This document shows positions 3,229 through 62,773 of a stretch of DNA of 64,000 bases, one piece after another (the stretch's first letter is position 1; the number at the start of each line of letters is the position of its first letter). The DNA is from Dehalococcoidales bacterium. GTDB taxonomy: Bacteria; Chloroflexota; Dehalococcoidia; Dehalococcoidales; Fen-1064. Location of the stretch: positions 1,496 to 65,495 of the forward strand of contig DATKWT010000122.1 in assembly GCA_035529395.1 (NCBI GenBank), in the 5' to 3' direction. The notes beneath the pieces were generated by a model, which had not been told where the DNA came from, made no database searches, and saw only the letters and a program-made list of their open reading frames with translations. Position numbers and translations under genes: made by a program.

Positions 3229-3298
3229 CTTGGGTTCCCCCCTTGTCTATCAGTTTCACGGTCCTCGCTTGACGAATAACCGTGGCGGTATCAGGTTA

Positions 3299-5872: not shown

Positions 5873-5883
5873 TATCTTGCCTC

Positions 5884-6318: not shown

Positions 6319-6367
6319 CTATCCAACTCCTTTGTTTCTTCACCCGCCTTGCCGGGACGGCAAGGCG

Positions 6368-9385: not shown

Positions 9386-9412
9386 TCAAAGCTCCTATCC
9401 GGCTCAACTGGT

Positions 9413-11392: not shown

Positions 11393-11423
11393 ATATCTAT
11401 TCTATTCCTGCTTTCCCTCAGTC

Positions 11424-14165
11424 TCAGCCGACGGCCACGGTCTCGGTACCGACCTCGCCCTTGGTGACCAAGGCCAGGGCTTTGGCGGCAGCTCCTATCG
11501 CCTGTGACACTGTATCCGGGATATCCTTGGGTCCCTGGCAGCACCCGGCCATATAGATTCCGTCGGTCTGTGTTCCCATAATATCAAGCTTGTAGTGTTT
11601 CTCTTCAAAAAAGCCATCGCTATCCTGGTCCAGCCAGAAGAGCCTGGCGACATCACCGGCATCGGCGCGCGACTGGATAGCCACGTTGAGGACGACCATG
11701 TCCACCGGCACCCTTATCAGGCTCCCGAGCAGGGTGTCCTCGCATACCACAACCAGTTTCCCCTTCTCTTCGTCGGTCAGGGCAACATCGGTTACCTGGG
11801 CAACCTTGCCGCGGATGAAGTTGATGCCTTCCTCTGAAATACGTTTATAAAACTCCTCGTAACCCTTACCGAAGCAACGCATGTCAATGTACATCTGGTA
11901 GACATCTGCACCGGTCTTTTCCTTTAGCTGGTGGGCATGTTTGAGGCCATACATGCAGCATACGCGTGAGCAGTACAAGTGGTAATTCTCGTCACGGCTG
12001 CCTACACAGTGAATAATGGCGGCGCTCTTCGGGGTGGAACCGTCCTTGAGCATCACCTTACCCTCCGTCGGGCCGGTGGAGCTTATCATGCGTTCCATCT
12101 CGAGGCTGGTGAATACATTTTCAAATTTCCCGTACCCGTACTGCGTCATCGAGGTGGGGTCGAAGAGGTCATAGCCAGTGGTGACGATAATAGCACCGAC
12201 CTCCAGATTAACGAACTCGTCTTTCATATCGTGGTCGATGGCCTCCCGCTCACAGGCAGGGATACAGGCAAGACACTCGGAGCAGACACCGCAATTCAAA
12301 CACCGTTTTGCCTCTTCTATCGCATTCTCCTCGGAGAAGCCCAGTTCTACCTCAGGAAAACCACCCCGCTGGTCCTTTTCGAGCATAGGCATTTGCTGCC
12401 GTGCCTTTTTAACGACACCGGCTTTGTTGACGTTCTTAACTCTTTCTCTCGGTTCCGACCGGCCCTCTTTCAGGTCGACATTCCTGAGATAGCGGTCAAT
12501 TGAAATGGCCGCTTCTTTCCCGGTGGCAACCGCTCCGATGACGGTATCCGGACCGGAGACGGCATCACCACCGGCAAATACTCCGTCGATATTCGTATGC
12601 AGCGTCAAATCGTCGACGATAATCGTTCCAAACCGGGTGTACTCAAGTTTGTCCGGGAGCATTTCCTGGTTCACCCGCTGGCCGATTGCCATGATAACGG
12701 TATCGACTTCCATGGTGAACTCGGAGCCTGCTATTGGCACCGGTCGTCTTCGGCCGCTCTCATCGGGTTCACCCAGCTCCATACGAATGCACTCGATGCC
12801 GGTGACCTTCCCGTTCTGGGAGAGGACCTTGACCGGATTCACCAGTATATTGATTGCGATGCCTTCTACCTCCGCTTCATCCACCTCGGTCTTATCGGCG
12901 GGCATCTCAGTTCGTGAGCGGCGGTACACGATGGCAACTTCCTCAGCCCCGATGCGGTTGGCTACCCTGGCGGCGTCGATAGCGGCATTGCCACCGCCAA
13001 TCACAGCCACCCTGTTTCCTAACTTAACCTTTTCGCCGGAGTTTGCTCGCTGCAGGAAACTGAGGGCATTCAGCACGCCATTGGCATCTTCACCGGGAAT
13101 ACCCATCGTCTGGCCGATACCGGCCCCGGCAGCAATGAATACCGCCTTGTAGTCATCTTTGAACAGGTCTTCCAGCTTCGTGACGGTGGTATTGGTGCGT
13201 ATCTCGACGCCCAGTTCCTGGACGTAGCCAATCTCATCGTCCACTATGCTGTTGGGCAAGCGGTATTCGGGAATACCGTAGCGGAGGAGGCCGCCTACCT
13301 TCGGAGCAGCTTCGAACACCGTCACCGGGTAACCCATCCGTATAAGGTCATAGGCACAACCGATTCCGGCAGGTCCGGACCCGATGATGGCCACCTTCTC
13401 TTCATGGGTCAATTCGACGGGTGTTGCCTTTTCCCGCCCGTTTTGCATTTCATAGTCAGCCATGAAGCGCTTCAGGTAACGGATAGCGACTGACTCGTCT
13501 ACCTGACCACGCTCACATTCCGATTCGCAGGGGTGGGTGCAGACCCGGCCACAGACCCCGGCAAAGGGCATGGTGCGCCGTAGCACTCCAAGGGCTTCCT
13601 TGAACCGTCCCTGTGATATCAGGGCTATGTAACCCTGGGCGTTCACACCGGCAGGGCAAGCCACACGGCACGGGGGCAAACCTCGCTTGTCGATCGTATA
13701 TACGTTGGGGACCGCCTGGGGAAACGGGCGGTAAGCCGCCTGGCGATCTACCAGGCCCAGTTGCCACTCGCTTGGAAAGGAGACCGGACACACCTTGGCG
13801 CACTCCCCGCAGCCGGTGCATTTACTGATATCGATATAACCGGCTTTCTTCCTTACCTTGACATTGAAGTCGCCGGCATGGCCTGAGACCTCTTCTACCT
13901 CGCAGTAAGTCATCAGCTCAATGTTCTTATTCGAGCCTACCTGACTCATCTTGGGGGTACCGATACAGGAGGCGCAGTCCATGGTGGGGAAGGTCTTGTC
14001 AAGCTGCAGCATGCGCCCGCCCACGGTGGGTGACCTCTCCACCAGATACACACGATGGTCCGAGTCTGCAACCTCAAGGGCTGCCTGCATACCGGCGATA
14101 CCGGCACCAACAATCAGGACATCGGGTTTGCTACGGGCTTCACTCCTTGCAGCTCTTTCCGCCAA
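11424..14165 (-). CDS. HdrA-like flavoprotein with an inserted GltD/NfnB-like NAD(P)H-binding module (913 aa)
   Basis: TTG start at 14165 with a GGGAGG RBS. HdrA-type N-terminus (VLIVGAGIAGMQAA, CTGCGECAKVCP). A GltD-type region follows (CPAGVNAQGYIALI..., CGRVCTHPCESEC, VAIIGSGPAGIGCA, VAVIGGGNAAIDAA). The HdrA body then resumes (HCVGSRDENYHLYCSRVCCMY). Confidence 0.8.
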   Translation of the reverse strand: MAERAARSEARSKPDVLIVGAGIAGMQAALEVADSDHRVYLVERSPTVGGRMLQLDKTFPTMDCASCIGTPKMSQVGSNKNIELMTYCEVEEVSGHAGDFNVKVRKKAGYIDISKCTGCGECAKVCPVSFPSEWQLGLVDRQAAYRPFPQAVPNVYTIDKRGLPPCRVACPAGVNAQGYIALISQGRFKEALGVLRRTMPFAGVCGRVCTHPCESECERGQVDESVAIRYLKRFMADYEMQNGREKATPVELTHEEKVAIIGSGPAGIGCAYDLIRMGYPVTVFEAAPKVGGLLRYGIPEYRLPNSIVDDEIGYVQELGVEIRTNTTVTKLEDLFKDDYKAVFIAAGAGIGQTMGIPGEDANGVLNALSFLQRANSGEKVKLGNRVAVIGGGNAAIDAARVANRIGAEEVAIVYRRSRTEMPADKTEVDEAEVEGIAINILVNPVKVLSQNGKVTGIECIRMELGEPDESGRRRPVPIAGSEFTMEVDTVIMAIGQRVNQEMLPDKLEYTRFGTIIVDDLTLHTNIDGVFAGGDAVSGPDTVIGAVATGKEAAISIDRYLRNVDLKEGRSEPRERVKNVNKAGVVKKARQQMPMLEKDQRGGFPEVELGFSEENAIEEAKRCLNCGVCSECLACIPACEREAIDHDMKDEFVNLEVGAIIVTTGYDLFDPTSMTQYGYGKFENVFTSLEMERMISSTGPTEGKVMLKDGSTPKSAAIIHCVGSRDENYHLYCSRVCCMYGLKHAHQLKEKTGADVYQMYIDMRCFGKGYEEFYKRISEEGINFIRGKVAQVTDVALTDEEKGKLVVVCEDTLLGSLIRVPVDMVVLNVAIQSRADAGDVARLFWLDQDSDGFFEEKHYKLDIMGTQTDGIYMAGCCQGPKDIPDTVSQAIGAAAKALALVTKGEVGTETVAVG

Positions 14166-34788: not shown

Positions 34789-36657
34789 CTATGAGGATTG
34801 GGGTGGCACTACGGTAGTTACCGGTGAGGTTGCCAGGCACACCCGATTCTTGCCGGCTCTCTTGGCTTCGTACATGGCTTCGTCTGCCTTCTTGAGCAGA
34901 CCTTCGGCACTGGCAGCATGGGACGGATATGAAGCTATCCCGATACAAACACTGAATCCCACCTCCCGGTCGTCCATCCGTATCCGGGAAAGGTGCGCTT
35001 CTGACCATAGCCTTTGCCCGACTTCGCTAGCGCCAACCAGGTCTGTGTCGGGCGTTAGCACCACAAACTCATCGCCCCCCAGGCGGGCGGCTACATCCGC
35101 AGCTCTGGCCCTGGTTTTGATAATCCTGGCCAGTTCCTTCAGCAGGACGTCACCCTGGTCATGGCCAAAACGGTCGTTGACAGTCTTCAGGTCATCCACG
35201 TCAATCATTATCAGCGATACAGCGGTCTTATTCCTCTTCGCACGGGCCAGTTCCCGCCGTATTTGCTCCATCAGGTACCTGCGGTTATAAAGACCGGTGA
35301 GACTGTCGGTGAAGGCAACTTCCACAGCCCTCTCATACATCTGTGCGTTCTCAATGGCGACGCCTATCTGACTGGCAATTGAACCAAGTAGCCGCAGGTC
35401 TCGCTCTACAAAGTCTCGTGAATCATGGCTGCCCATGCAGATTGTCCCCAGTATCTTCTCTCTCGCTATTATAGGTACAGAATAGAGTGAACGAAGCCCC
35501 ATACTCTGCAGCACTATCAGGTCAGACTTCATGCCGGCCGAGGTATCGCTCAATATGACCGCTTTCCCCGAAAGTGCCGCCCGACCTGCAAAGCCCTTGC
35601 CGAGTTTCATTCTCGCCATCTTGTACACAGAGTTGGCAGAGAACCCGTGGTGAGCTTCCAGCACCAGTTCATTGGTCTGTTCATCAAGCAGGTGTATCCC
35701 TGCCGCTCTTACCTGGATGGCTTCGGTTATACTCTCCAGCACACCCTGTAGCAGTTCGGCCAGATTGAGGCTCTGCCCCAGCTTGGTGCTAATCTCCAGC
35801 AGTGTCTCGATTTGGTCGGTGTATTCCCGGGACGTGGCCTCGGCAATCTTTCGTGTAGTGATGTCCATCAATGTGCCCAGCACTGCCCTATTCCCGCCGT
35901 ATTCGATTGATGTGACTCGTTCCGAGACCCAGAGAGTTTCCGTGTCCTTCTTAAGCACCCTGAACTCGTAGGGAAGATTGCTATGGCCCTTCAGGGACGC
36001 TATCGCCTTCGCTCTGGCCTCCTCTTTATCCTCGGGATGAATGAGGTCGGTAGAGCGCATCCCTAGCAACTCATCGTTCGTATAGCCCGATATCTCTACC
36101 ATGACACGATTGACGTATGTGAAACGTCCATCCTGCACAAGGTATATCACTGTGGCCGCCGACTCTGTCATCCCTCTTAATAATTCCTCGCCCTGCCGCA
36201 GTGCTTGTTCCGCTTTCTTTCTCTCTGTTACGTTGGCGATTACGCCTATCGAACCGGTCACCTCTCCATCCGGCCCCTTGAATACGCTCAGCGAGAGGTC
36301 AACATCGATGATTCCCCCGTCCTTCCTGATAACTCTGGTCTCCATGTGGTGCTGCATACCTTTTCGCCTGGCATTCTGCGACCCTATTCTCCGCCACTCT
36401 TTCTCCGGGTAAAGAGACCGGACAGGCCGCATGTGCAGGTCAGCGGCATCCATCACCAGCAGGGACTCGGCAAATTTGTTCCAGAAGACTATGTTCTCAT
36501 TCTCATCAGTTACTATTATGGCCACCGTCGAGTTCTCAAAGATAGTCCGGTAGTTTTCCTCGGTTAGCAGCGGGTGTCCACTCGGTCTCTTGCTGCCGGT
36601 GGATTCACCGGCCGCTGCCTGCGTCTTGCCTCGCACTAACCTGGATTTATTTGCCAT
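34789..36657 (-). CDS. PAS-PAS-GAF-GGDEF diguanylate cyclase
   Basis: C-terminal RLGGDEFVVL active site with an upstream RxxD-type region. Two PAS-like segments and a GAF segment lie N-terminal to it. Confidence 0.85.
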   Translation of the reverse strand: MANKSRLVRGKTQAAAGESTGSKRPSGHPLLTEENYRTIFENSTVAIIVTDENENIVFWNKFAESLLVMDAADLHMRPVRSLYPEKEWRRIGSQNARRKGMQHHMETRVIRKDGGIIDVDLSLSVFKGPDGEVTGSIGVIANVTERKKAEQALRQGEELLRGMTESAATVIYLVQDGRFTYVNRVMVEISGYTNDELLGMRSTDLIHPEDKEEARAKAIASLKGHSNLPYEFRVLKKDTETLWVSERVTSIEYGGNRAVLGTLMDITTRKIAEATSREYTDQIETLLEISTKLGQSLNLAELLQGVLESITEAIQVRAAGIHLLDEQTNELVLEAHHGFSANSVYKMARMKLGKGFAGRAALSGKAVILSDTSAGMKSDLIVLQSMGLRSLYSVPIIAREKILGTICMGSHDSRDFVERDLRLLGSIASQIGVAIENAQMYERAVEVAFTDSLTGLYNRRYLMEQIRRELARAKRNKTAVSLIMIDVDDLKTVNDRFGHDQGDVLLKELARIIKTRARAADVAARLGGDEFVVLTPDTDLVGASEVGQRLWSEAHLSRIRMDDREVGFSVCIGIASYPSHAASAEGLLKKADEAMYEAKRAGKNRVCLATSPVTTVVPPQSS

Positions 36658-37265: not shown

Positions 37266-37955
37266 GTGTTCGGGTATGCAGTGAAATTTACGAGCCCGGC
37301 GCAGGTAACGGAGGATAACGTGAGAAGCGCCCTTGCCTATGAAAGCATCCGGCAGAAACACGGTGAACTGCTAGGGGCTATGGACGGAATCATCCATGCC
37401 ATGTCAGTGGTGGTGGAAACACGAGACCCATATACCGCCGGCCACCAGAAGCGGGTAGCCGTTATTGCCTGCGCCATCGGGAGAGTGATGGAGCTCTCCG
37501 AGTGGGATATAGAAGGCATACGTATTGCCGGACTGCTCCACGATATCGGCAAGCTGGCAGTACCCGCCGAGATCCTCACCAAGCCGGGCAAGATCAACAC
37601 CACCGAGTTGAGCATCATCAAGAGCCACTCACAGGTGAGCTACGACATCCTCGAACTGATAGAATTCCCCTGGCCGGTGAAACAGGCCGTTCTCCAGCAC
37701 CACGAAAGACTGGACGGTTCAGGCTATCCTGATGGCCTGTCCGGTGACGACATCATTATCGAGGCAAAGATATTGAGCGTGGCCGACGTCGTGGAGGCAA
37801 TCTCATCTCACCGGCCCTACCGTCCCGCTCTCGGTCTGGAGTACGCCATGAGAGAAATTATCAAGCAGCGCGGTATCCTCTTCGACCCGAGGGTGGTTGA
37901 TGCCTGCCTGAAGCTCTATGAAGAGAAGGACGCTGACCTGGAGCAGCTCCAATAA
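37266..37955 (+). CDS. stand-alone HD-GYP domain protein (probable c-di-GMP phosphodiesterase)
   Basis: HQKRV...LHDIGK...HHERLDGSGYPDGL. GTG start at 37266; the frame is closed by TGA at 37242. Confidence 0.8.
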   Translation: MFGYAVKFTSPAQVTEDNVRSALAYESIRQKHGELLGAMDGIIHAMSVVVETRDPYTAGHQKRVAVIACAIGRVMELSEWDIEGIRIAGLLHDIGKLAVPAEILTKPGKINTTELSIIKSHSQVSYDILELIEFPWPVKQAVLQHHERLDGSGYPDGLSGDDIIIEAKILSVADVVEAISSHRPYRPALGLEYAMREIIKQRGILFDPRVVDACLKLYEEKDADLEQLQ

Positions 37956-38236: not shown

Positions 38237-38265
38237 TTGACAACACCTCACAACAATTGTAAAAT
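38237..38265 (+). promoter_or_regulatory. sigma-70 promoter TTGACA-N17-TAAAAT upstream of the rpoN-like gene
   Basis: ttgaca at 38237-38242, a 17-nt spacer, then taaaat at 38260-38265. Confidence 0.6.
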
Positions 38266-38274
38266 AATTATACG

Positions 38275-39393
38275 ATGCCTGGCTTGAAAATAACACAAGT
38301 GCAATCCCAGCAAATGCGGCAGGAATTAAGACAGATCCTCCGCATAGAGCAGGCCAACCTGCTGCAAATGTCTGAGGGAGACTTTCATAAGATTCTCAAC
38401 GAGATAGAAAAGGCACCTCTTTTTATAAGGCTCTGTCAGAGAGATAAGATAATCCGACAACAGAAAATTCCCAGAACCGATATTTCGACCCGCTTTTTTC
38501 AGCCCAAAGATGAGTTAGTAGCCGATGGAGGTTCTCTTGATGCTGAGTCCCTGGTACAGAACAAGGAACAAATCGTTCGTCTGATAGAAAAGCTGGGAAT
38601 AGAAAAATTCAAGCGCTACTTCCTGTTTCCTGAATCAGGAATGACCCCGGAAGAGATTGCTGAGGAATGCAGTCTGAATATCTCGGAAGTCCAGGAGATT
38701 AACAGCCTTATCGATGACTTCTCTATACTAAGCGAGTTTTACCACCCTTCCGCTTTAAGCTCAAAGGTAATTCATTATTCAAAGATTGCCTCGATAGAGA
38801 GGCAGGGTGATAGCTTCATAATCGGGTACTACAATGCATCTTCTGCCCGAGGACGGTATTTGATTGATTATGAGAGCTTTGAAGAGTTGAAGACTAAAGG
38901 GGCTCTTACCAGGGATGAGGCCAGGGAAGCTAAGCAGCTATTCAAGAGGCTGGAACTAATCAATAGCCGCCAGGACACGGTAAATCAGATACTGCAAGGC
39001 ATTATTGATAAGCAGGCACTCTACCTGGACTGTGGTGCTCCGAACTCGCTCTTACCCTTCAGCCAGAAGGAACTGGCTGAAAAAATCGGTATTGCTCCCA
39101 GCTCTATTAGTCGCGCTATAAACAGTAGAAGCCTGGAAACACCCTGGGGTGCAGAGATTCCCCTCAAGGATTTTTTCCCCAGGCCGAAGAAGTTTAAAAA
39201 GGAATTAATCAGAAAGGTCCTTGAAACTGAGGAGGGGCTTTCTTCAGATGAGGCAATCAGGGCTAAGCTCCAGGAGAAATATGGTGTGGTTCTTTCTCGC
39301 CGCTCAGTGGCTAATCTGAGGAAAGAGTTGAAAGTCCCCGCCACCCGGAGCAAGAATAAGTATCTTCCCTATGAAAGCGAGGGGGTTAAATGA
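38275..39393 (+). CDS. rpoN: RNA polymerase sigma-54 factor, short divergent form (372 aa)
   Basis: Region I-like, Q/L-rich N-terminus (QSQQMRQELRQILRIEQANLLQM). HTH segment ELAEKIGIAPSSISRAINSRSLETPWGAEIPLKDFF. RpoN-box-like SRRSVANLRKEL. Confidence 0.75.
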   Translation: MPGLKITQVQSQQMRQELRQILRIEQANLLQMSEGDFHKILNEIEKAPLFIRLCQRDKIIRQQKIPRTDISTRFFQPKDELVADGGSLDAESLVQNKEQIVRLIEKLGIEKFKRYFLFPESGMTPEEIAEECSLNISEVQEINSLIDDFSILSEFYHPSALSSKVIHYSKIASIERQGDSFIIGYYNASSARGRYLIDYESFEELKTKGALTRDEAREAKQLFKRLELINSRQDTVNQILQGIIDKQALYLDCGAPNSLLPFSQKELAEKIGIAPSSISRAINSRSLETPWGAEIPLKDFFPRPKKFKKELIRKVLETEEGLSSDEAIRAKLQEKYGVVLSRRSVANLRKELKVPATRSKNKYLPYESEGVK

Positions 39394-41339
39394 GTATAGT
39401 TCATACCGACCGGGCAAAGTGCCAGGGTTGCTATGTATGTGTACGCAACTGTCCGGCCAAGGCAATCAAGATAAGAGACGGTCTGGCTGAGGTAGTAAGG
39501 GAACGTTGTATTGACTGCGGTCTCTGTATACGTGTCTGTGTCACGAATGCAAAGCAGGCGAAGAGCGACGTGGAAGAGGTCCGGCAATTATTAGCCCATC
39601 ATCCTGATGTGATAGCTGTGGTTTCATCCTCCTTCCCTGCTGCAATACTCGATTGTACACCCGGACAGCTTGTAACCTCTCTTAAAAAATTGGGATTTAC
39701 TGATGTGATGGAGGCAGCCTTCGGCGCTGAGCTCATTAGCAGGGAATACATCCGCATCATTAATGAAAGTGAAGGTAAACCTGTCATCTCGTCTAACTGC
39801 CCGGCGGTGGTATCCTACATCGAGAAGTACTACCCCTCAATACTCGGTAATTTAGCACCCATTGTTTCGCCCACTATTGCCATGGGTAGAATAATCAAAC
39901 AACGCTATAATGCGCAGGCTAAAGTGGTCTACATTGGTGCTTGTATCGCCAAAAAAACGGAAACCACAGATGATAATATTGACGGTGTGGTAGATGCCGT
40001 ACTGACCTTTATGGAATTAGAGCGTATGTTTGCTGACGGGGGAATTAACCCGGGCGGTGAGGAGGAACAGGAATTCTCCGGTCCCAAATCTAACCTTGGC
40101 CGGCTGTTCGCCATATCAGGGGGTCTGCTTAAGGTGATGGGGCTTAATGATGACATATTGAAAAATGATGTTATCAGTGTTCATGGCAGGGAGTATGTCC
40201 TCAAGATTCTTGGGGAGATTGCTCGAGGTGACATCACTGCCAGATTTGCCAACCTGTATTTTTGCCATGGGTGTATTGATGGACCATTTATTAATAATGA
40301 GCTCAGCGGTTTCAGCCGGAAGGGACTCATTGCCAGATATACCAGAAATAACGCAGACCCGATTCAAACCGAGAAAGATATCGAACAATATGCCGATATC
40401 GACCTCAGCCGTAAATTTAGCGGGCAAAATATCTATCTACCTACTCCCAGCGAGGAGGAAGTTCAGAATGTCCTGGAGGTGATGGATAGGGCAGACCCCA
40501 GTGTCCAGATGGATTGCGGCTCTTGTGGTTACGCCTCCTGTCGGGAGTTGGCTGTCGCCGTTTGCCAGGGTCTGGCAGAGGTTACTATGTGCTGGCCTTA
40601 TCTGCTGCAACAATTGGAGGGGACTCAGGAAGACCTTATCCAGGCGGAGAAGCTTACCTCTCTGGGTCAGATGGCAGCTTCTATTGCTCACGAGGTCAAT
40701 AATCCTCTCGCTGGTGTCCTTATCTATACCAAGTTGCTGGCTAAGAATATATCCGCTGAGAATATCGGTAAGGAAAAATCGCTGGACTACCTGAATAAAA
40801 TGGATACGGAACTCACGCGCAGTTCCAAGCTAATCCGTAATCTCCTGGATTTTGCGCGCCAGTCGGCGCCGACCCTCAGGCTGGTAGATATTAACCAGAT
40901 TATCGAGCAGACCTTTAGCGTCGCTGGTCACCAGGCTGATTTGCAGAATATTAAGGTGATAAGAGAACTGAGCCCTGACATACCTGAGGTTATGGCTGAT
41001 TTCGACCAGCTTCAGCAGGTTTTCACTAACCTTATCATGAACGCTATCCAGGCAATGCCAGAGGGAGGGGAATTAACCATTCGCACCTCGATAGGTAATA
41101 GCGGCCAGCTCAAGATGGAAGTTGAAGATACGGGTAGTGGTATTTCTCAGGAGAACATGCGTAAGCTCTATACCCCCTTCTTCACGACCAAAGAGAAAGG
41201 GAAAGGCGTAGGTCTGGGACTGGCTGTGGCCCATGGAATCATCCAGCGACATCACGGAAGGATTGAGGTACAAAGTAAGCAGGGAAAGGGAACCACCTTT
41301 ACTGTTTACATGGAGGCTAACCATGCAGGAAAAGGCTAA
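39390..41339 (+). CDS. sensor histidine kinase with N-terminal 2x[4Fe-4S] and an [FeFe]-hydrogenase H-cluster-like domain
   Basis: CQGCYVCVRNCP and CIDCGLCIRVC. H-domain-like motifs SSNCPAVV, GACIAKKTE and FCHGCIDGP. Cys motif CGSCGYASC...C. HisKA SIAHEVNNPL and HATPase N/G1/G2 boxes. Confidence 0.75.
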   Translation: MSIVHTDRAKCQGCYVCVRNCPAKAIKIRDGLAEVVRERCIDCGLCIRVCVTNAKQAKSDVEEVRQLLAHHPDVIAVVSSSFPAAILDCTPGQLVTSLKKLGFTDVMEAAFGAELISREYIRIINESEGKPVISSNCPAVVSYIEKYYPSILGNLAPIVSPTIAMGRIIKQRYNAQAKVVYIGACIAKKTETTDDNIDGVVDAVLTFMELERMFADGGINPGGEEEQEFSGPKSNLGRLFAISGGLLKVMGLNDDILKNDVISVHGREYVLKILGEIARGDITARFANLYFCHGCIDGPFINNELSGFSRKGLIARYTRNNADPIQTEKDIEQYADIDLSRKFSGQNIYLPTPSEEEVQNVLEVMDRADPSVQMDCGSCGYASCRELAVAVCQGLAEVTMCWPYLLQQLEGTQEDLIQAEKLTSLGQMAASIAHEVNNPLAGVLIYTKLLAKNISAENIGKEKSLDYLNKMDTELTRSSKLIRNLLDFARQSAPTLRLVDINQIIEQTFSVAGHQADLQNIKVIRELSPDIPEVMADFDQLQQVFTNLIMNAIQAMPEGGELTIRTSIGNSGQLKMEVEDTGSGISQENMRKLYTPFFTTKEKGKGVGLGLAVAHGIIQRHHGRIEVQSKQGKGTTFTVYMEANHAGKG

Positions 41340-42684
41340 AATCCTCGTTGTTGATGATGAGACTATTGTCCGCGAATCACTTAGTGACTGGCTAAACGAT
41401 ATCGATTATCGGGTATTCGCTGCAGAGAGTGGTTCTCAGGCCCTGGAAATCCTGGAAAAGGAAAGAATGAGCATTATCATTGCTGATTTAATGATGCCGG
41501 GGATGGACGGGATAGAGCTCATGAAGAGAGCCAAGGAAATCGTCCCTACTGTAGAGGTAATCATTATTACCGCTTTCGGGAGTATCCCCACTGCCATCAA
41601 TGCTATGAGGGAAGGTGCCTATGACTATGTCGAGAAGCCCTTCTGCCCGGAGAGGGTATCGCTGCTGGTTGAGAAACTGGTGGAGCATCAAGGGCTAATC
41701 GAGGAGAATATTTCCCTGAACAAGAAGCTGGAGCAGCGCTACGAGTTTGAGAATATCACTGCTAAAAGCCCCAAGATGCAACAGGTGATAGAGCTAATAA
41801 AAGTTGTAGCCCAGAGTAATGCCACTGTATTGATTACGGGTGAAAGCGGTACCGGCAAGGAGCTGGTGGCCCGTTCCATTCACTCTCAGAGCTATCGTCG
41901 GAAAAAGCCCTTTATCGCTGTCAATTGTGCCGCTTTACCTGAGAGTTTGCTGGAGAGTGAGCTGTTTGGGCATGAGAAGGGTTCCTTTACCGGGGCTTAT
42001 GCTCAGAAGAAGGGGAAATTTGAGGTGGCTAATAGAGGGACCCTTTTTCTGGATGAGGTTGGCGATATGAGTACCAACATTCAGGTCCACCTGCTCAGGG
42101 TACTGGAGGAGAAGGAGTTCACAAGGGTTGGTGGTAATGAGCTGGTCAAGACCGATGTCAGGGTTGTTACAGCAACCAATAGGGATATTAAGAAGGCGGT
42201 GACCAGTGGGGCATTCCGTGAAGACCTCTATTATCGATTAAACGTAGTCACTATTGAATTACCTCCATTAAGGGAAAGAAAAGAGGACATACCTCTCCTG
42301 GCCCAGCATTTTCTGGAGCAGTTTACCGTGGAGAACCAGAAGAAAACTATCGGGTTTTCCCCTGAGGCTACCGATTTTCTTTTGAAATACGAGTGGCCTG
42401 GCAATGTTCGGGAACTGGAGAATGCTGTTGAGAGGGCAGTCATACTAACAAAGAATTCCTATATCGAAGTGGGAGACCTGGCTCAGGACAATCCGATGTT
42501 AGTTCATTCCGCGCTGTCAGGAAAAAGCCTGAACGAGGTTGAGAAGAACCATATTCTGGATGTACTTACTAGAACTAACGGGAATAATAGCGAAGCTGCC
42601 AGAATCCTGGGGATTACCAGGATGACTCTGTATAATAAAATCAAGACATTTGGGCTGACTGTAAAGAAATTAGACAACGGCTGA
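41323..42684 (+). CDS. sigma-54-dependent response regulator (NtrC family: REC-AAA+-Fis HTH)
   Basis: ATG 41323 has a GGAGG RBS and overlaps the kinase gene by 17 nt. Walker A GESGTGKE, GSFTGA (GAFTGA variant), and a C-terminal HTH AARILGITRMTLYNK. Confidence 0.88.
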   Translation: MQEKAKILVVDDETIVRESLSDWLNDIDYRVFAAESGSQALEILEKERMSIIIADLMMPGMDGIELMKRAKEIVPTVEVIIITAFGSIPTAINAMREGAYDYVEKPFCPERVSLLVEKLVEHQGLIEENISLNKKLEQRYEFENITAKSPKMQQVIELIKVVAQSNATVLITGESGTGKELVARSIHSQSYRRKKPFIAVNCAALPESLLESELFGHEKGSFTGAYAQKKGKFEVANRGTLFLDEVGDMSTNIQVHLLRVLEEKEFTRVGGNELVKTDVRVVTATNRDIKKAVTSGAFREDLYYRLNVVTIELPPLRERKEDIPLLAQHFLEQFTVENQKKTIGFSPEATDFLLKYEWPGNVRELENAVERAVILTKNSYIEVGDLAQDNPMLVHSALSGKSLNEVEKNHILDVLTRTNGNNSEAARILGITRMTLYNKIKTFGLTVKKLDNG

Positions 42685-42728
42685 TTAATTCTTTTACATA
42701 TAGATAGTCTGCTTCAAGCAAAGAGTAA

Positions 42729-42762
42729 GGCTGTCCGGGATATCCTGGGCAGCCTTTTTATT
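42729..42762 (+). terminator. rho-independent terminator of the rpoN-HK-RR operon
   Basis: An 11-bp stem ggctgtccggg/cctgggcagcc (two G-U pairs) with loop atat, followed by TTTTTATTT. Confidence 0.75.
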
Positions 42763-42778
42763 TGGCAAGATAATTGCA
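42763..42778 (+). promoter_or_regulatory. sigma-54 (-24/-12) promoter TGGCAA-N5-TTGCA
   Basis: tggcaagataattgca has GG and GC at the canonical spacing. It lies 79 nt upstream of ATG 42857, immediately after the terminator. Confidence 0.7.
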
Positions 42779-42856: not shown

Positions 42857-44128
42857 ATGAAACCCATACTGATTGTCGAAGACGAGGCTATTATGAGGGA
42901 GTCTCTGGAAGACTGGCTTAAGAATAGTGGCTATCAAGTGGAAACCGCAAAGGAAGGGGACGAAGCACTAAGAGTTCTCGGGGAACGGGACTTTGGTATC
43001 GCCGTCCTTGACCTGAAGTTGCCGGGTAAGGATGGACTTGAGGTGCTACGTGAGGCAAAAGAGAGAAATCCAAAGATTAAGGGAATCATCATTACCGCTT
43101 ATCCTTCAGTGGAGACAGCCGTAGAGGCAATGAAAATGGGGGCTATCGATTACCTGCCCAAGCCTTTTGACCTTAATGAACTGGAGGAGCTAATCAGTAA
43201 GACTCTGGGGCCGATCCAGGTTGAGATAAGACCCAAGGTAGCCGTTGAAGAAACTGTAGCTGAGCCGGTTGAATTAGAGATGGTTGAAGTTGAGGAGGTT
43301 GAGGTAGAGGAGGATATTACCATTGCTCAAGGGGAAGCCCCGGTTCACTTCAAGCAGGGCAAAGCTCATTTTGAGGCCGGTAGGTATGCCCAGGCACTCA
43401 GAGAATTTCAGGCTGTTCTGGAAATTACACCGGAGGATATCGAGAACAGGGTATGGGTCCAGAAGGCGAAAAAGGCGTTAGTTGAACCGCAGGGTGAAGC
43501 TGCAGTACAGGGAGCAGTGAAAACCAGGAATTGTGTCTGGGTGGGCATGGGGATGGTGTCACATCGTATCTGCACCAACAACTTTAATTGCGTAACCTGT
43601 GAGTTCGACCAGGAGATGCAGGACAAGCTGGCTCGTGGCGAAACTTCAGAGGCTGGGACTTCAGATGTTGATGCCGCCATGGAAAAGCTTCTGTCATTAC
43701 CCGGTAATAAGAGACTCTGCCGTTATGCTCTTAAGGGTGACGTCTCTTTCCGGCTATGCTCCCGTCTATACGCTTGTGATACCTGTGAATTCGGTCAGAT
43801 GATGGAAGATATCCAGCAGCAGAAGCTGGAACAAAAAGCAATTGCGCTGGCTGCCCGAAAAAAGGTACTGGTATCTTACTACATAGACCCGGAGAAGTGC
43901 CAGGGGTGCATGATTTGTCTCCGGAAATGCCCGGTGGAGGCTATCATCGGTGACAAAAAACTGGTCCATGTTATTGACCAGGAGAAATGCACCAAATGCG
44001 GGACATGCCTTGAAGTTTGCCCACCACGCTTTGGTGCCGTTACGATGTTATCTGGCGTGAAAGTGCCCGAAACCATTTCGGGTGGGCCCGAAACCGTTCC
44101 GGAGGGGACAGAAGCAGTACGCAGCTGA
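42857..44128 (+). CDS. response-regulator receiver fused to a TPR-like segment, two Cys4 motifs and a 2x[4Fe-4S] ferredoxin domain
   Basis: ATG 42857 has a GAAGGAGG RBS. REC (ILIVEDE...VLDLKLPGKDG). The motif C..C.....C..CEF.Q.M occurs twice. C-terminal CQGCMICLRKCP and CTKCGTCLEVCP. Confidence 0.75.
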   Translation: MKPILIVEDEAIMRESLEDWLKNSGYQVETAKEGDEALRVLGERDFGIAVLDLKLPGKDGLEVLREAKERNPKIKGIIITAYPSVETAVEAMKMGAIDYLPKPFDLNELEELISKTLGPIQVEIRPKVAVEETVAEPVELEMVEVEEVEVEEDITIAQGEAPVHFKQGKAHFEAGRYAQALREFQAVLEITPEDIENRVWVQKAKKALVEPQGEAAVQGAVKTRNCVWVGMGMVSHRICTNNFNCVTCEFDQEMQDKLARGETSEAGTSDVDAAMEKLLSLPGNKRLCRYALKGDVSFRLCSRLYACDTCEFGQMMEDIQQQKLEQKAIALAARKKVLVSYYIDPEKCQGCMICLRKCPVEAIIGDKKLVHVIDQEKCTKCGTCLEVCPPRFGAVTMLSGVKVPETISGGPETVPEGTEAVRS

Positions 44129-44168: not shown

Positions 44169-44205
44169 GAGGAGCAGGTCTCTGGCCTGCTCCTCCTCTA
44201 TTTAT
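44169..44205 (+). terminator. hairpin terminator candidate
   Basis: Perfect 10-bp stem gaggagcagg/cctgctcctc with a 7-nt loop. The downstream tract is T-poor (ctctatttat). Confidence 0.45.
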
Positions 44206-50610: not shown

Positions 50611-53600
50611 GTGATGTCTACATTTGCTCAGCATGGAAACAGAAGTGGAGATTGGGGCCTCGCACGGGTCGAGAAGGAACTCAGGCTATCATCAGAGCAA
50701 CTACTGAGTCAATTCCGGACTGCCTGTGCACGAGCAAGCCTCCTGCTATCGCCTGATGAATTGGGCAGATGGGCAAACGAGGGTCTTGCTATGTCCCGCC
50801 ATTCCCCACCCCTCTCGTTGGAAGCAACAGAGGAGTATTTTCGGGTCACGCCCGAAGTCCTGGGTATTCTCCCATTCCCGCGTTTTCTCGATTGGGTCAG
50901 TAGAGGGAAGATGCTCTGCCGCGATAGTCCCGGTCTTGCTGCTGCCTACTTTCGAGCCAGCCCAAAGGCTCTGGCTATGCTTCCCGGGAGACAAATCGAG
51001 GTCTGGCTGGCAATGGGGCCGGGTCTCTATAAGAGAAACTCAGAATCAATGGAGCTGGCCTGCCGTTTCTTCGACGCCACCCCCGCTCTCCTGCAGAGTC
51101 TGAGCCTGATTAAAATGGAGCGATTTGCTCTGTTCCTTGAACGTCTGGCAGGGACCTCCTACGACCTGGCTGCCGAATGTCTGGGCTCAGCTCATCGGGT
51201 CCTGTCCACGTTAGGAGAGGAAGAGCGTGGGCCTTTCCTGGCTGTGGCCCTGGCCCTTGTTCGTCTGAATCCGAGGGCATCTGCTACCTTCTTTCAGAGA
51301 GGTACCGGGACCTTGGCCGGTATCGCTGGTGGGCAAAGGAGAAGGTTCCTTACACTAATGGGGAGAATAGCCCGATACAGCGGTCAGCTTGCTCTCTCTT
51401 TTTGTACCGATTGCTCGCAGGCCTTCGGTAGAATCGATAGCAGTCTGCATTCCCGCCTCCTGGACCGGGGTGAGGCCGTACTGGCAATATCAACCATTGC
51501 CGGGATAGAGTTTCTCAAGAGCTGTCCTGCCGTACTGGCAGAGATTGGCATTCCCGGACTGGAACGCTGGTTTAGAGAAGGGGTCAGGCTGCTGGGAAAG
51601 GATGAAAAAACGGGCCTTGCCTACTTCCGCCTTGAGTTTGCGGAAGAAAGGGCTCTGGAACGATTGCTGGTTACAGTCGAGCTTGACCAGGTCAGGGCAG
51701 TGCTGCTCATGTACGGCCAAGCTCTGGGAGGAACCGAGATAGAGATTCGGCCCAGTGAGAGCCTGGCGGTATGGAGTATGGGAGCCATACACCCGGGCAC
51801 ACCGACTACAGATGGGACCACTATCTTCCTGCCATCGTTAATGGACCAGTACGATTCGAATGAGGAGAACTTCACCTGGTACAAGGTGGCTGTCACCCAT
51901 CAGGCCGGTCATATCGAGTTCGGCACCTTCGACTTCTGCTTTGAAAAGGAAGCGGTACTGTTCCCTGACCGGCGACACCGGTTGCGGTCAACAGATGGAG
52001 CTGGCCTGACCGATATGGAGAGGTTCCTCAGCCTCTTCGACGATAGGAGGCTCGCTTCCGATATATACTCCCTGGTGGAGGACGTCAGGGTTGACTATCT
52101 GGTGAAGTATGGATACGCGGGAATAAGGGCCGGGTACAAGTCGGTCCAGCAGGAAACGGTGTGGAGACGTCCTTCTCCGGACCATCTTCCGCTGAGGGAA
52201 GCATTCCTCGAAATACTCATCCGGCTTAGCCTGGATGGCGAGCTTCCCATAATCCCTGATATCCTGCGTAGTCCAGTTGAATCAGCGGTGAAGCTCTTGC
52301 AGCGTTTACAGGCGTCGCGGGCAACCGTCGAGGATTCCGCTGAGGCTGCTCTTCGACTGTACGAGATTGCCGGCACCATCGCCAATACCTATGGACCGGA
52401 GTGGGAATGGGAAATAGCTAATCCTGGTGAAAGTGGGCCTGACATGGCAGTGAAAGCCTATCGCCGTTCTGATAGTGACAACGTCACCCTTGAACCGGGC
52501 GTGGAGGTACCATACCAGTCCCCGACAGATGTAGAATATCGTGGTGATTCCCATCCCGACACACTTCACATACTGCCAAAGGCTGAGGATGATTCCGACC
52601 AGGGGTTTCCGTCTCCCGTATCGCCTCCCGGCACTGAAGTGCAACTCAACGGGATTATGCAGGCAAGGAACGTCCTGTCCGGTCAGTACACGACAGACCT
52701 TCCCGGTGAAATCCGTGCCGAGGAGACTGTCTCTACCGGACAGGACGGAAACACAGGGCTGTCTGATACCGATTACCCAGGGGAGGGTGCTCTCCTGAGA
52801 GAAGACGGACAATCGTACCTCTATGATGAGTGGGATTTCCATGCCGGCTGCTATCGACCAAAGTGGTGCCGTGTGAGGGAGAAGCTGCTGCCTGAAGTTA
52901 GTACCGATTTCTTCGAGGAAACCCTGGCCCGTAGTCACCTGCTGGCCGCCCAGGTCAGGAAGCAGTTCGAGATGATAACCCCGGAACTTCTCAGGAAGGC
53001 GGACAGACTCTATGACGGTGAAGAACTGGACCTGGATGCTGTGGTCAGAGCCGTTGTGGATAGGAAGGCAGGGTGCATCTCTGACGAGAGGATATACTGG
53101 AAGAGGAGGAGGGTACAAAGGGACGTGGCGGCAATCCTGCTTCTTGATATGAGTGCCTCCACCAGTAACATAATCAAGGATACCGATGATGAATACCCTG
53201 AGTGGTACCTCGACCTGGTGGAAGGCTCCCCCAGAATGAGAGCGCAGGGGGGTGAAGTGCTGATAGGAGCATCACGGCGCGTGATTGATGTGATGAAGGA
53301 AAGCGTGGTGTTGATGATGAACGCCCTGGAAGGTGTCGGGGATTGTTACGGTGTCTATGGCTTCTCCGGTCACGGTCGGGATAATGTGGAGATACTGGTT
53401 ATCAAGGGAATAGACGAAGGATTCTCCGGCACTGTCAAGAGCAGGGTAGGCAGCATCGCACCGTTACACGGTACCAGAATGGGTTCGGCTATAAGACATG
53501 CCATCTCGAAGCTGGACACACATGATGCGAAGACAAAGCTACTCTTCCTGGTCAGTGATGGCTATCCTCAGGACGAGGATTATGGCCAGGACGATGGCGA

Positions 53601-53802
53601 TGAAGAATATGCCCTCCAGGATACCAGAATGGCCTTCCTTGAGGCCGAGCGAAAGAGCATTATGCCCTTCTGCCTTACGGTTGACATAGCCGGATACGAT
53701 TACCTGAGGAGAATCTGCCACGACATCAACTACGAAGTAGTCAATAACATCGAATCTCTACCGCAGCGTTTGCCCATCCTCTACAAGAGGCTGACATCCT
53801 GA
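50611..53802 (+). CDS. NorD/CbbO-like protein with C-terminal von Willebrand A domain (1063 aa)
   Basis: C-terminal VWA domain with MIDAS LLLDMSASTS (DxSxS), and later VSDGYPQD. The mid-region HQAGHIEFGT is reminiscent of NorD/CobT-type proteins. Start is GTG 50611 or ATG 50614. Confidence 0.65.
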   Translation: MMSTFAQHGNRSGDWGLARVEKELRLSSEQLLSQFRTACARASLLLSPDELGRWANEGLAMSRHSPPLSLEATEEYFRVTPEVLGILPFPRFLDWVSRGKMLCRDSPGLAAAYFRASPKALAMLPGRQIEVWLAMGPGLYKRNSESMELACRFFDATPALLQSLSLIKMERFALFLERLAGTSYDLAAECLGSAHRVLSTLGEEERGPFLAVALALVRLNPRASATFFQRGTGTLAGIAGGQRRRFLTLMGRIARYSGQLALSFCTDCSQAFGRIDSSLHSRLLDRGEAVLAISTIAGIEFLKSCPAVLAEIGIPGLERWFREGVRLLGKDEKTGLAYFRLEFAEERALERLLVTVELDQVRAVLLMYGQALGGTEIEIRPSESLAVWSMGAIHPGTPTTDGTTIFLPSLMDQYDSNEENFTWYKVAVTHQAGHIEFGTFDFCFEKEAVLFPDRRHRLRSTDGAGLTDMERFLSLFDDRRLASDIYSLVEDVRVDYLVKYGYAGIRAGYKSVQQETVWRRPSPDHLPLREAFLEILIRLSLDGELPIIPDILRSPVESAVKLLQRLQASRATVEDSAEAALRLYEIAGTIANTYGPEWEWEIANPGESGPDMAVKAYRRSDSDNVTLEPGVEVPYQSPTDVEYRGDSHPDTLHILPKAEDDSDQGFPSPVSPPGTEVQLNGIMQARNVLSGQYTTDLPGEIRAEETVSTGQDGNTGLSDTDYPGEGALLREDGQSYLYDEWDFHAGCYRPKWCRVREKLLPEVSTDFFEETLARSHLLAAQVRKQFEMITPELLRKADRLYDGEELDLDAVVRAVVDRKAGCISDERIYWKRRRVQRDVAAILLLDMSASTSNIIKDTDDEYPEWYLDLVEGSPRMRAQGGEVLIGASRRVIDVMKESVVLMMNALEGVGDCYGVYGFSGHGRDNVEILVIKGIDEGFSGTVKSRVGSIAPLHGTRMGSAIRHAISKLDTHDAKTKLLFLVSDGYPQDEDYGQDDGDEEYALQDTRMAFLEAERKSIMPFCLTVDIAGYDYLRRICHDINYEVVNNIESLPQRLPILYKRLTS

Positions 53803-61594: not shown

Positions 61595-62773
61595 TCAGTT
61601 CAGCAAGGACGGTACATCCTTGGCGTACTCGTCTATTTCCTTGAGCTTGCTCTCCACCTGCTTCTGCCGTTTCTTTATCGTGGAGACAACTCCAGCGGCC
61701 TCAATGTAGTACTTTCGGATTTTCTCCACATTCCTCAGTTCGGAGAGGATTACGGAGACCTCGAGGGAGCCCCTGTCCCTGGGATAATCACCGTTCCTGA
61801 TGATGGCTTCCGGAGTCAGGCTCTTGAGGTATTCGCCGAGTTCTTTGATGACACTGAGGCTCATCTCTTTGCCCGGTGCCGAGACCAGATAGAGTGCCCT
61901 GGTGGCGTCTTGAGTGTCGCACTTGAACGATAGCTCACTGATAGCTTCGTCCATTGCCTCTATTCCCCGGTGCATCTCGGTGCTCTTATCCCTGAAGTTG
62001 CGGGTTGTCTTAAAAGGCAGCCGGATGGATGGTAGCGCGGACTTCCCGTAGCCGATAACCGACCATCCGACTATGCTCTGGATAATATCCCCGGCATCGA
62101 GTAACCGGGCACCGACGTACTTGGCCTTCTTCTCCTCACCGGCACAGAGGATATTATAGAAAGGTTCAACAATCATATCATTAATCTGGGAAAGGTTGTT
62201 CCTCAGGGAAGCGTTCTTTCTGACGTACCTCTGGTTGTCAACCAGGAAGATGGCATCGGCTACGGAACTGGCCGACTTAAGGCATGTCGCCGAATTGTAG
62301 ATGGTCCTTTCTTCGGTACGCTCTTCGTGCTCAAAGGGAAGGATGAGCAGATTGTAGATTGGCTTGTCTACGTAGCGTTCCTTGATGACCTGTGTCATTA
62401 TGGATATCGCGCCGGAACCGGTGCCACCGGCGGTACCGGCAACCATCAGGAAGGCGTCTGACTCAAAGAAACGCGGGGTCCCTCTTATGGCGTCAATGAC
62501 CTTGTCGGCGTCCTCTCTGGCAATCTCGGCGCCGAGTTCGTTAATCTTGCCAACGCCGTGACCACCGGACTTGCGTCCCCCGATGAGAATTCTATGTTGG
62601 TAGTCAGGCTTGATATAAGACAGCCCGCTGAGGTCGGCAAGGTCAGTATTGACCGCAAAGGCGCCGGTGACTATCTCAATCCTGCGTTGTGCTCGTGACC
62701 TCCTGTTCAGTCGGGCAAATCCGTCGGCAATATTCGACCCACACTGGCCGAATCCAATTACTAGAAGCTTCAC
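61595..62773 (-). CDS. tubulin/FtsZ-superfamily GTPase, CetZ-like
   Basis: GTG start with a GAGGTG RBS. MKLLVIGFGQCGSNIADGF, GHGVGKINELGAEIA, the tubulin signature AGGTGSG, LVDNQRY and GDYP. By eye it is collinear with archaeal CetZ1 as I recall it. Confidence 0.8.
   Translation of the reverse strand: MKLLVIGFGQCGSNIADGFARLNRRSRAQRRIEIVTGAFAVNTDLADLSGLSYIKPDYQHRILIGGRKSGGHGVGKINELGAEIAREDADKVIDAIRGTPRFFESDAFLMVAGTAGGTGSGAISIMTQVIKERYVDKPIYNLLILPFEHEERTEERTIYNSATCLKSASSVADAIFLVDNQRYVRKNASLRNNLSQINDMIVEPFYNILCAGEEKKAKYVGARLLDAGDIIQSIVGWSVIGYGKSALPSIRLPFKTTRNFRDKSTEMHRGIEAMDEAISELSFKCDTQDATRALYLVSAPGKEMSLSVIKELGEYLKSLTPEAIIRNGDYPRDRGSLEVSVILSELRNVEKIRKYYIEAAGVVSTIKKRQKQVESKLKEIDEYAKDVPSLLN

Follow-up and report, generated by a model that had tools for sequence, protein, structure and literature searches.

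A predicted hydrogenase-like sensor histidine kinase and its conserved sigma-54 promoter cassette in Dehalococcoidia

Proposals of sensory [FeFe]-hydrogenases date back to about 2010, and their signalling partner and mechanism are still not known. This report concerns a hydrogenase-like sensor histidine kinase of 649 amino acids (aa), encoded at positions 39390..41339 on the forward strand of a 64-kb stretch of DNA from a Dehalococcoidales bacterium (contig DATKWT010000122.1; the whole stretch is called the window), and the sigma-54 cassette to which its gene belongs. Among the closest described systems are the putative sensory HydS proteins TmHydS (group C, M2f) and TamHydS (group D, M2e). 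TamHydS was found experimentally to bind an H-cluster, and both proteins carry a C-terminal motif that reads Cx2Cx4Cx16C (PMC8163306). A 2026 study of TamHydS closed by calling the identification of interaction partners critical (PMC13104023).

Several other systems couple a hydrogenase or a hydrogenase-like protein to signalling. HydDB lists [FeFe] group C1 as 'histidine kinase-linked (putative)' and the [NiFe] group 2b as 'histidine kinase-linked' (PMC5037454). The C1 proteins of Hydrogenedentota carry HATPase_c, their P1-P3 motifs are described as barely recognisable, and group A3 genes adjoin 21 of 53 (PMC11406978, 2024). In addition, a 2019 catalogue for Clostridiales includes sigma-54 activators that are regulated by Fer4, Fe_hyd_lg_C and FeS domains (PMC6615313).

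The sensor kinase contains five regions, all of them on the + strand. The N-terminal ferredoxin domain for two [4Fe-4S] clusters (39396..39560) holds two Fer4 motifs at aa 3-57 by Pfam, with C11, C14, C17 and C21 in one and C40, C43, C46 and C50 in the other. The H-domain (39603..40286) was matched by Fe_hyd_lg_C (PF02906) over aa 72-299 with an E-value of 5.5e-48 and 164 bits, against a cut-off of 22.1. Behind it lie a C-terminal cluster of the HydS type, C376-x2-C379-x4-C384-x16-C401 (40515..40592), matched by the FeS domain PF04060 at aa 373-402, and a signalling helix with the DHp domain (40593..40865), where HisKA covers aa 425-492. The last region is the catalytic ATP-binding domain (40998..41315), matched by HATPase_c at aa 537-642, with N, G1, F and G2 boxes. 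Residues H434, N547, N551, D580, G582, G584, F597 and G606-L611 of the kinase core are invariant in relatives. An initial annotation of this DNA had claimed two ferredoxin-type [4Fe-4S] motifs, an H-cluster domain and a complete HisKA/HATPase_c module; all three were borne out, the first by the Fer4 matches and their eight conserved Cys, the second by the hidden Markov model search and the third by Pfam and the invariant kinase boxes.

The predicted fold agrees with this assignment. An AlphaFold model of the sensor part (aa 1-410) reached a predicted local distance difference test score (pLDDT) of 94.3 and a predicted template-modelling score of 0.91, and the top 50 matches of a Foldseek search against the PDB were all [FeFe]-hydrogenases, with template-modelling scores up to 0.75. 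As to a Nar1/NARF-like identity, sequence and fold matches were all to bacterial hydrogenases, in a comparison set without a Nar1 reference, and the C-terminal cluster is of the HydS type. The full-length AlphaFold model (pLDDT 85.5) contains one helix, aa 402-455, which begins right after C401 and includes the phospho-acceptor His434; a second helix occupies aa 461-489. No PAS or HAMP domain was seen between the C-terminal cluster and the DHp domain, either by Pfam (no PAS) or in the full-length model. These data support the prediction that an Fe-S sensor of hydrogenase origin is joined without an intervening domain to a competent histidine kinase. A frame or annotation artefact at 39390-41339 was ruled out because the open reading frame (ORF) is intact and was found identically on five metagenome contigs, with gene order unchanged. 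The exact protein is also deposited at NCBI from a Dehalococcoidales metagenome-assembled genome (HUV44735.1), annotated with a generic domain name only. A membrane sensor is unlikely: both AlphaFold models consist of soluble domains only and no long hydrophobic stretch was seen, although no dedicated transmembrane prediction was run.

Ligand conservation was followed in 120 relatives with the same architecture (62-92% identity, 640-660 aa), which make 121 sequences with the query. The eight ferredoxin Cys and C137, C185, C292, C295, C376, C379, C384 and C401 are conserved in at least 120 of the 121 sequences and are mostly invariant. In the H-domain, C137 is kept in 120 sequences and the other three, C185, C292 and C295, in all 121; similarly, in the C-terminal cluster C379, C384 and C401 are invariant and C376 is kept in 120. 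Such conservation of Cys among the aligned relatives is far above chance.

Counterparts of the three H-cluster signatures were located by alignment to solved hydrogenases. L1, SSNCP, lies at aa 134-138 (39789-39803, +), L2, GACIAKKTE, at aa 183-191 (39936-39962, +) and L3, FCHGCIDGP, at aa 291-299 (40260-40286, +). In the alignment, ISSNCPA falls on FTSCCPS, GACIAKKTE on MPCIGKKFE and FC.HGCIDG on TCpEGCISG, and across the 120 relatives the signatures read SSNCP, GPCVAKKAE and NL[YH]FCHGCIDGP. The three counterparts named by the initial annotation therefore stand, except that L3 had been equated with the canonical CxxGC and its actual spacing is Cx2C. The first Cys of TSCCP had been reported as absent, and it is: at this proton-relay position (C299) the 121 sequences hold Asn in 109, Thr in seven, His in four and Ser in one, and Cys in none. 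Both the Lys and the Glu of L2 are invariant among the 121 sequences. In true hydrogenases this Lys contacts a cyanide ligand. The position of M353 is Gly throughout the family, as in TmHydS (PMC8163306).

In CpI numbering, the canonical ligands of the cubane are C300, C355, C499 and C503, one of them bridging. Many of the more distant relatives read CCxGC at L3. Compared with these, F291 occupies the canonical C499 column and C292 falls one column later, whereas G294-C295 match the canonical Gly and bridging Cys (G-C503) and are invariant. Read from the alignment, the H-domain appears to keep four cubane-ligand Cys, has both L2 residues, Lys and Glu, and is without the proton-relay Cys. A further cluster, CGSCGYASC-x7-C, had also been proposed behind the H-domain. 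Its fourth Cys, C392, is conserved in only 90% of relatives; the invariant ligand is C401, which changes the motif to Cx2Cx4Cx16C.

The sensor kinase shares with the HydS type the two N-terminal [4Fe-4S] clusters and an H-domain without the proton-relay Cys. In a local tblastn comparison with the TamHydS coding sequence (supplement of PMC13104023), L1 of TamHydS, VISSACPAVV, aligned with VISSNCPAVV of the sensor kinase, and CGSCGSPTC-x16-C aligned with C376 to C401, C379 corresponding to a ligand in TamHydS. The two proteins differ at L3, which is ACIGGC in TamHydS, the canonical Cx3C, and Cx2C here. Also, group C (M2f) HydS proteins have a PAS domain after the C-terminal cluster, whereas in the sensor kinase the cluster leads directly into the histidine-kinase helix. 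The H-cluster is an experimental finding in TamHydS (PMC8163306) and is putative in the sensor kinase.

The gene of the sensor kinase is the second of an apparent operon. It is preceded by a gene for a short, divergent sigma-54 of 372 aa (38275..39393, +; 359 aa if started at 38314, as by gene callers), which has the Sigma54_DBD domain (Pfam, E 4e-21) and the RpoN box SRRSVANLRKEL. This protein scored 84 bits with TIGR02395, below the cut-off, and aligned to the Aquifex RpoN structure 5ui5 across aa 86-360 (E 1e-11); Region I is faintly detectable (Sigma54_AID, E 0.76). A sigma-70-type promoter-like site, TTGACA-17-TAAAAT (38237..38265, +), matches 11 of 12 consensus positions and was recognised by this match only. 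Because it ends 9 nucleotides (nt) ahead of the ATG at 38275, the sigma-54 mRNA may be leaderless, or the true start may be the ATG at 38314 used by gene callers. The sigma-54 and kinase genes overlap in an ATGA at 39390. Downstream, the kinase gene overlaps by 17 nt at 41323, with a GGAGG ribosome-binding site, with a gene for an NtrC-type response regulator (41323..42684, +). The regulator comprises REC, an AAA+ domain with GSFTGA and HTH_8; it scored 252 bits with Sigma54_activat of Pfam and was matched by the AtoC, NtrC and ZraR models of NCBIfam. The operon of these three genes ends in an intrinsic terminator hairpin with a 13-bp stem followed by a T-run (42727..42756, +).

Between this terminator and the next gene lies a sigma-54 promoter of the -24/-12 type, TTGGCAAGATAATTGCA (42762..42778, +). 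The next gene (42857..44128, +), which was identified by Pfam and by reading of the sequence, has the ribosome-binding site GAAGGAGG ahead of its ATG and encodes a receiver/Fe-S protein of 423 aa, here called REC-X; a second terminator hairpin, with a 12-bp stem, closes the cassette (44169..44195, +). A generic scan for TGGCAC-N5-TTGC with up to two mismatches gave 69 matches against about 63 expected. Such a scan is uninformative alone; what counts is the match with a single mismatch at 42763, together with its conservation. An element of this kind was found once in the 64-kb window, and shuffled sequence gave a mean of 0.37 matches at a looser threshold. An inverted repeat, TGTAAAGAA...TTCTTTTACA (42660..42698, +), spans the NtrC stop codon at a distance of 65-100 nt ahead of the -24 element, and recurs in six of the eight loci described below. 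It may be an activator-binding site, with low confidence. The left arm is coding, and since the repeat is partly coding, it is kept as a lead only.

The cassette was compared in eight Dehalococcoidia loci: the window itself, a complete chromosome (CP070842.1) and six contigs from metagenomes, the kinases of these six contigs being 62-67% identical. All eight have the same order of short sigma-54 (341-372 aa), sensor kinase, NtrC-type activator and a gene that begins with a receiver. The promoter, with the consensus TTGGCAAGAAAATTGCA, is near-invariant in all eight, in spacers that have otherwise diverged. It is the only site of its kind in each locus, with two copies in locus L090, where they stand in tandem 66 nt apart (L090:13417-13500), ahead of a small ORF with the Cys motif and the REC-X gene. 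A hairpin equivalent to 42727-42756 is visible in most of the related loci. Because the -24/-12 element is conserved in eight of eight loci and is the sole such site per locus and in the window, the predicted sigma-54 wiring of the sensor kinase is well supported, and the short sigma-54 looks dedicated to this single promoter. Both the wiring through the adjacent NtrC-type regulator and control over the Fe-S response regulator at 42857, as first annotated, agree with these data: the genes overlap, the activator has GSFTGA, the sigma factor has an RpoN box, and the conserved element TTGGCAAGATAATTGCA stands directly upstream of the target gene.

The cassette differs in composition from its surroundings. 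Its GC content is 0.476, against 0.536 and 0.545 in the flanks, and its GC at third codon positions is about 0.52 against 0.63-0.73; it is also AT-richer than the flanks in six of the seven sister loci. The flanks vary among genomes, and in two loci a recombinase or transposase fragment adjoins. These features are suggestive of transfer of the cassette, and are no proof of it. HdrA/CCG genes adjoin several sister cassettes (L086-L090), and a Mvh-type [NiFe] hydrogenase stands beside the cassette of L088. In L087 (12101-14272) the NtrC-type gene is split in two ORFs of 281 and 124 aa and the Cys motifs of REC-X are lost by a frameshift, which could be either cassette decay or assembly error.

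The target of the promoter in the window combines REC, a TPR-like region, two Cys repeats of the form C-x13-C-x5-C-x2-C-E-F-x-Q and a 2x[4Fe-4S] ferredoxin domain. The repeats lie at aa 226-252 and 288-314, between the TPR-like region and the ferredoxin domain. They matched no Pfam or NCBIfam family, apart from a weak match to zf-CHY (E 0.002). REC, the TPR-like region and two Cys repeats are encoded in six of the eight Dehalococcoidia loci and in a Clostridia relative, L009; the 2x[4Fe-4S] domain is an addition in the copy of the window. The repeat was also seen in L005, L086, L088, L090 and L009, and L090 has in addition one copy in a separate ORF of 90 aa. A REC-NuoE fusion is encoded by the first gene behind the promoter in L085 and L089. 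NuoE/NuoF-like genes follow in these two loci and in L005 (L085:13429-17281, L089:13424-17271, L005:13445-18014). In the same three loci REC is also fused to a [2Fe-2S]/[4Fe-4S] protein that resembles the N-terminal part of HydA and is without an H-domain, so that receiver-fused NuoE-like and HydA-N-terminal-like proteins are encoded on both sides of the NuoF-like gene. The fusions suggest that phosphorylation might control electron-transfer subunits.

Relatives of the sensor kinase are found far beyond Dehalococcoidia. An exhaustive search of 1.84 billion representatives at E < 1e-30 gave 836 clusters, the best 150 of which were classified. Among these 150, 60 representatives belong to a Cx3C class (median 576 aa), about 33 of them with PAS (HydS type), and 67 to a Cx2C/CCxGC class (median 681 aa), with HATPase_c in 39, a sigma-54 activator AAA+ domain in 14 and GGDEF in six. 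A neighbour-joining tree rooted on HydA and without support values, an indication only, placed the PAS-type clade at the base, the Cx2C and CCxGC signalling fusions apart from it, and the protein of the window nested among the kinase fusions. At least 571 relatives were found in a scan of one genome per species. Among 75 analysed loci, 58 have direct kinase fusions, from many phyla, and nine have direct fusions to sigma-54 activators, mostly of Geobacter and Desulfuromonas types. By these domain assignments, the sensor module is not rare and is fused to kinases, sigma-54 activators or GGDEF in many anaerobic phyla.

The gene context of sensors with a Cx2C or CCxGC L3 was counted in 63 loci, within seven genes of the sensor and with Pfam-checked assignments. 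True HydA was found in 41 loci, HydC in 37, HydB in 33, HydG in 22, HydE in 15, HydF in 13 and Rex in 18, and a single-domain receiver lies directly downstream of the sensor in 46. The Kuenenia locus, also checked with Pfam, reads Rex, HydC, HydB, HydA, sensor kinase, REC, hybrid kinase, HydE, HydG, lyase and HydF. The closest relative outside Dehalococcoidia among the matches listed, from Clostridia (L006, 51% identity), has the order hydG, hydE, hydF, sensor kinase, a 175-aa M54 peptidase-like gene and NtrC, followed by a 121-aa gene without a Pfam match, NuoE, NuoF and an Fe-S/GCV_H protein. An aspartate-ammonia-lyase-like gene (L030:11159-12580) lies among hydE/G/F, and near hydE/G/F in L006 (16762-18042) an Fe-S protein carries a fused glycine-cleavage H-protein domain. 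Both fit the reported roles of an aspartate-ammonia-lyase-like protein and of H-protein in assembly of the dithiomethylamine ligand (PMC11736057, PMC12752695).

The preferred reading, to which a probability of about 0.6 was given, is that the sensor kinase is a cytoplasmic two-component kinase with a HydS-type, non-catalytic [FeFe]-hydrogenase homologue as its input, and that it signals as follows. H2 would most likely reduce the H-domain and the N-terminal clusters; otherwise a low-potential reductant pool would do so. As suggested by the model, a conformational change would then pass from the C-terminal cluster domain to the helix 402-455 with His434 and alter autophosphorylation. Coupling to this helix is more likely conformational than redox because the C-terminal cluster of TamHydS was not reduced by H2 (PMC13104023). 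The phosphate acceptors would be the NtrC-type activator, which is translationally coupled to the kinase, and probably the paralogous REC-X receiver too; the kinase may serve both receivers because they are 49% identical. The activator and the short sigma-54 of the cassette would open the single -24/-12 promoter, itself recognised by conservation, and the promoter would drive the receiver/Fe-S protein and, in sister genomes, the NuoE/NuoF-like electron-transfer subunits as well. In favour of this reading count the domain architecture with its invariant ligands, the confidently predicted hydrogenase fold, the close match of L1 and of the C-terminal motif to TamHydS, the HydA and maturase genes near relatives with a Cx2C or CCxGC L3, the unbroken helix from C401 to His434 and the invariant kinase motifs. 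The gene overlaps, the constant gene order with its one conserved promoter, the likeness of the two receivers, the direct fusions of the sensor to sigma-54 activators and the Mvh-type [NiFe] hydrogenase or Hdr-like genes beside several sister cassettes count for it as well. Sensing of H2 through a true H-cluster is a separate part of this reading and was put at slightly short of an even chance.

Several observations weigh against the preferred reading. L3 reads C-H-G-C, one residue shorter than the canonical CxxGC, family-wide and with no insertions, and an L3 spaced in this way is not known from any characterised protein. In the Dehalococcoidia subfamily SSS replaces the APS motif close to the diiron site, and the TamHydS result just cited counts here as well. 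The sensor kinase scored below the cut-offs of the curated NCBIfam models for monomeric B1 hydrogenases (TIGR04105, 182 against 450) and for group A (TIGR02512, 104 against 406). By tblastn, no hydE/F/G was found in the window or within 10 kb in the seven sister loci, and a Pfam inventory of 20 other ORFs of the window contained none either; a true hydA was likewise absent from the window and the seven sister loci; literature searches returned nothing usable on maturases or [FeFe] groups in Dehalococcoidia. Besides the promoter, no 8-mer that could mark an activator-binding site is common to at least six of the eight loci. Phosphotransfer, the response to H2 and transcription of the cassette are predictions only.

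Some of these points would be explained if the Dehalococcoidia H-domain held a [4Fe-4S] cubane alone, without the diiron subsite, which is possible though rather unlikely. The kinase would then report the reduction state or integrity of its four Fe-S clusters, such as ferredoxin/NADH poise, oxidants including O2 and NO, or Fe-S supply, instead of H2, with the same output wiring. Consistent with this are the lack of maturase genes in the window and sister loci, the shifted first Cys of L3 and the SSS in place of APS. In addition, the P1-P3 motifs of Hydrogenedentota C1 proteins were reported as barely recognisable (PMC11406978), genes downstream in sister loci are NuoE/NuoF-like and ferredoxin-like with no hydrogenase, and the hydrogenase beside one sister cassette is of the [NiFe] type, for which HydEFG is not needed. 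Against a cubane-only domain, G294-C295, the column of the bridging Cys, is invariant, as are the L2 residues Lys and Glu; maturases may be encoded elsewhere in the genome, and relatives with a Cx2C or CCxGC L3 are embedded among hydE/G/F genes. At the other extreme, a working metabolic hydrogenase that merely has a kinase-like tail is highly improbable. The fold and cubane ligands are hydrogenase-like, and a metabolic role was raised for some C1 enzymes in bifurcating clusters (PMC8542988), but the proton-relay Cys is never present, with Asn in its place in 109 of 121 sequences, and the characterised HydS enzymes are low in activity (PMC8163306). Moreover, a complete, invariant kinase core is fused to the domain, a response regulator is coupled to it, and all curated hydrogenase cut-offs are missed.

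The output may also be more than transcription. The main targets of the kinase could be the receiver-fused Fe-S proteins (in the window REC-TPR-Cys-Fer4, in sister genomes REC-NuoE together with REC-[2Fe-2S]/[4Fe-4S]), through which a NuoE/F-type (HydBC-like) complex would be gated post-translationally. The H-domain of the kinase might even be the missing hydrogenase-like partner of this complex, and NtrC and sigma-54 would set the expression level only. The similarity of the two receivers argues for this improbable scheme, as do the REC fusions to NuoE-like and HydA-N-terminal-like proteins flanking NuoF-like genes in L005, L085 and L089, and the absence of an H-domain from those HydA-like proteins. 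Its basis is gene order and domain fusions alone, however; the window is without NuoE/F genes after REC-X, complex formation is putative, and the scheme is compatible with the HydS-type reading, not exclusive of it. A broader proposal, held to be equally doubtful, describes the cassette as a self-contained transferable module with a private, miniaturised sigma-54 for one promoter, in which an H-domain with a lost or altered diiron site would serve as a redox sensor and phosphorylation would control both transcription and receiver-fused subunits of a NuoE/NuoF-type bifurcating complex. If true, this would be phospho-gated electron transfer, not described before.

The logic of the cassette, by analogy, mirrors that of HoxBC-HoxJ-HoxA and HupUV-HupT-HupR of group 2b, as if rebuilt on an [FeFe] scaffold: in those systems a low-activity [NiFe]-hydrogenase senses H2 and acts through a histidine kinase on an NtrC-family regulator. 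The targets of the Hox system in Ralstonia eutropha are sigma-54 promoters. The metal site and the fold are unrelated, however, and sensor and kinase are separate proteins in group 2b and one polypeptide here. Group 2b also targets hydrogenase operons, whereas the predicted target of the Dehalococcoidia cassette is a receiver/Fe-S protein. Group C1 resembles the sensor kinase in that a hydrogenase-like protein is linked to a histidine kinase, often beside genes of group A3 bifurcating hydrogenases. A Hydrogenedentales relative (L071, 37% identical) fits the published C1 proteins with HATPase_c (PMC11406978), and the genomic context of the sensor-kinase family appears to fit the published picture of this group. 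In contrast, the best C1 reference in HydDB is reportedly without HATPase_c, and the Dehalococcoidia cassette, which has no hydABC beside it, includes a sigma-54 and an NtrC-type regulator as well.

Wiring of a hydrogenase-like sensor to sigma-54 had been called undescribed in the initial annotation. This was overstated because sigma-54 activators with the same sensor had already been catalogued for Clostridiales in 2019 (PMC6615313). In those fusions, as in 14 of the 67 Cx2C/CCxGC representatives and nine of the 75 loci, the sensor module feeds sigma-54 transcription directly. They are one-component systems, whereas in the cassette a kinase and a receiver relay the signal and a sigma factor is encoded alongside them; fusions of the Geobacter type have a Cx3C L3. 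Sensors fused to kinases are likewise already in surveys (group C/C1), where these proteins are listed without experimental study. Three features were not described in the literature that could be searched: the way the Dehalococcoidia cassette combines a short sigma-54 of its own with a single conserved promoter, an L3 that is Cx2C in the whole family, and Fe-S targets fused to receivers.

In the sensor kinase the partner is fused to the sensor, and the last ligand of the C-terminal cluster stands at the start of the helix with the phospho-acceptor His. The sensory-hydrogenase hypothesis is directly testable here because of this fusion. The Cx2C form of L3 raises the question of whether an H-cluster can form when one cubane ligand is shifted. 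For the uncultured and environmentally important Dehalococcoidia, the cassette offers a compact sigma-54 regulon with a readable promoter, and it draws attention to receiver-fused Fe-S proteins, a set so far unstudied.

Other genes of the window were also noted. Just upstream of the cassette are a PAS-PAS-GAF-GGDEF diguanylate cyclase (34789-36657, -) and an HD-GYP-like (HD_5) protein (37266-37955, +). A heterodisulfide-reductase-like cluster (2080-14165, -) encodes three large HdrA/GltD-like Fe-S flavoproteins, an FrhB-like protein and two proteins with CCG domains; it resembles the genes that adjoin the cassette in L086-L090. A 1063-aa ORF (50611-53802, +) has no Pfam match at E 1e-6. Finally, a tubulin-family protein (61595-62773, -) was matched by Tubulin and CetZ_C of Pfam, a type known from archaea.

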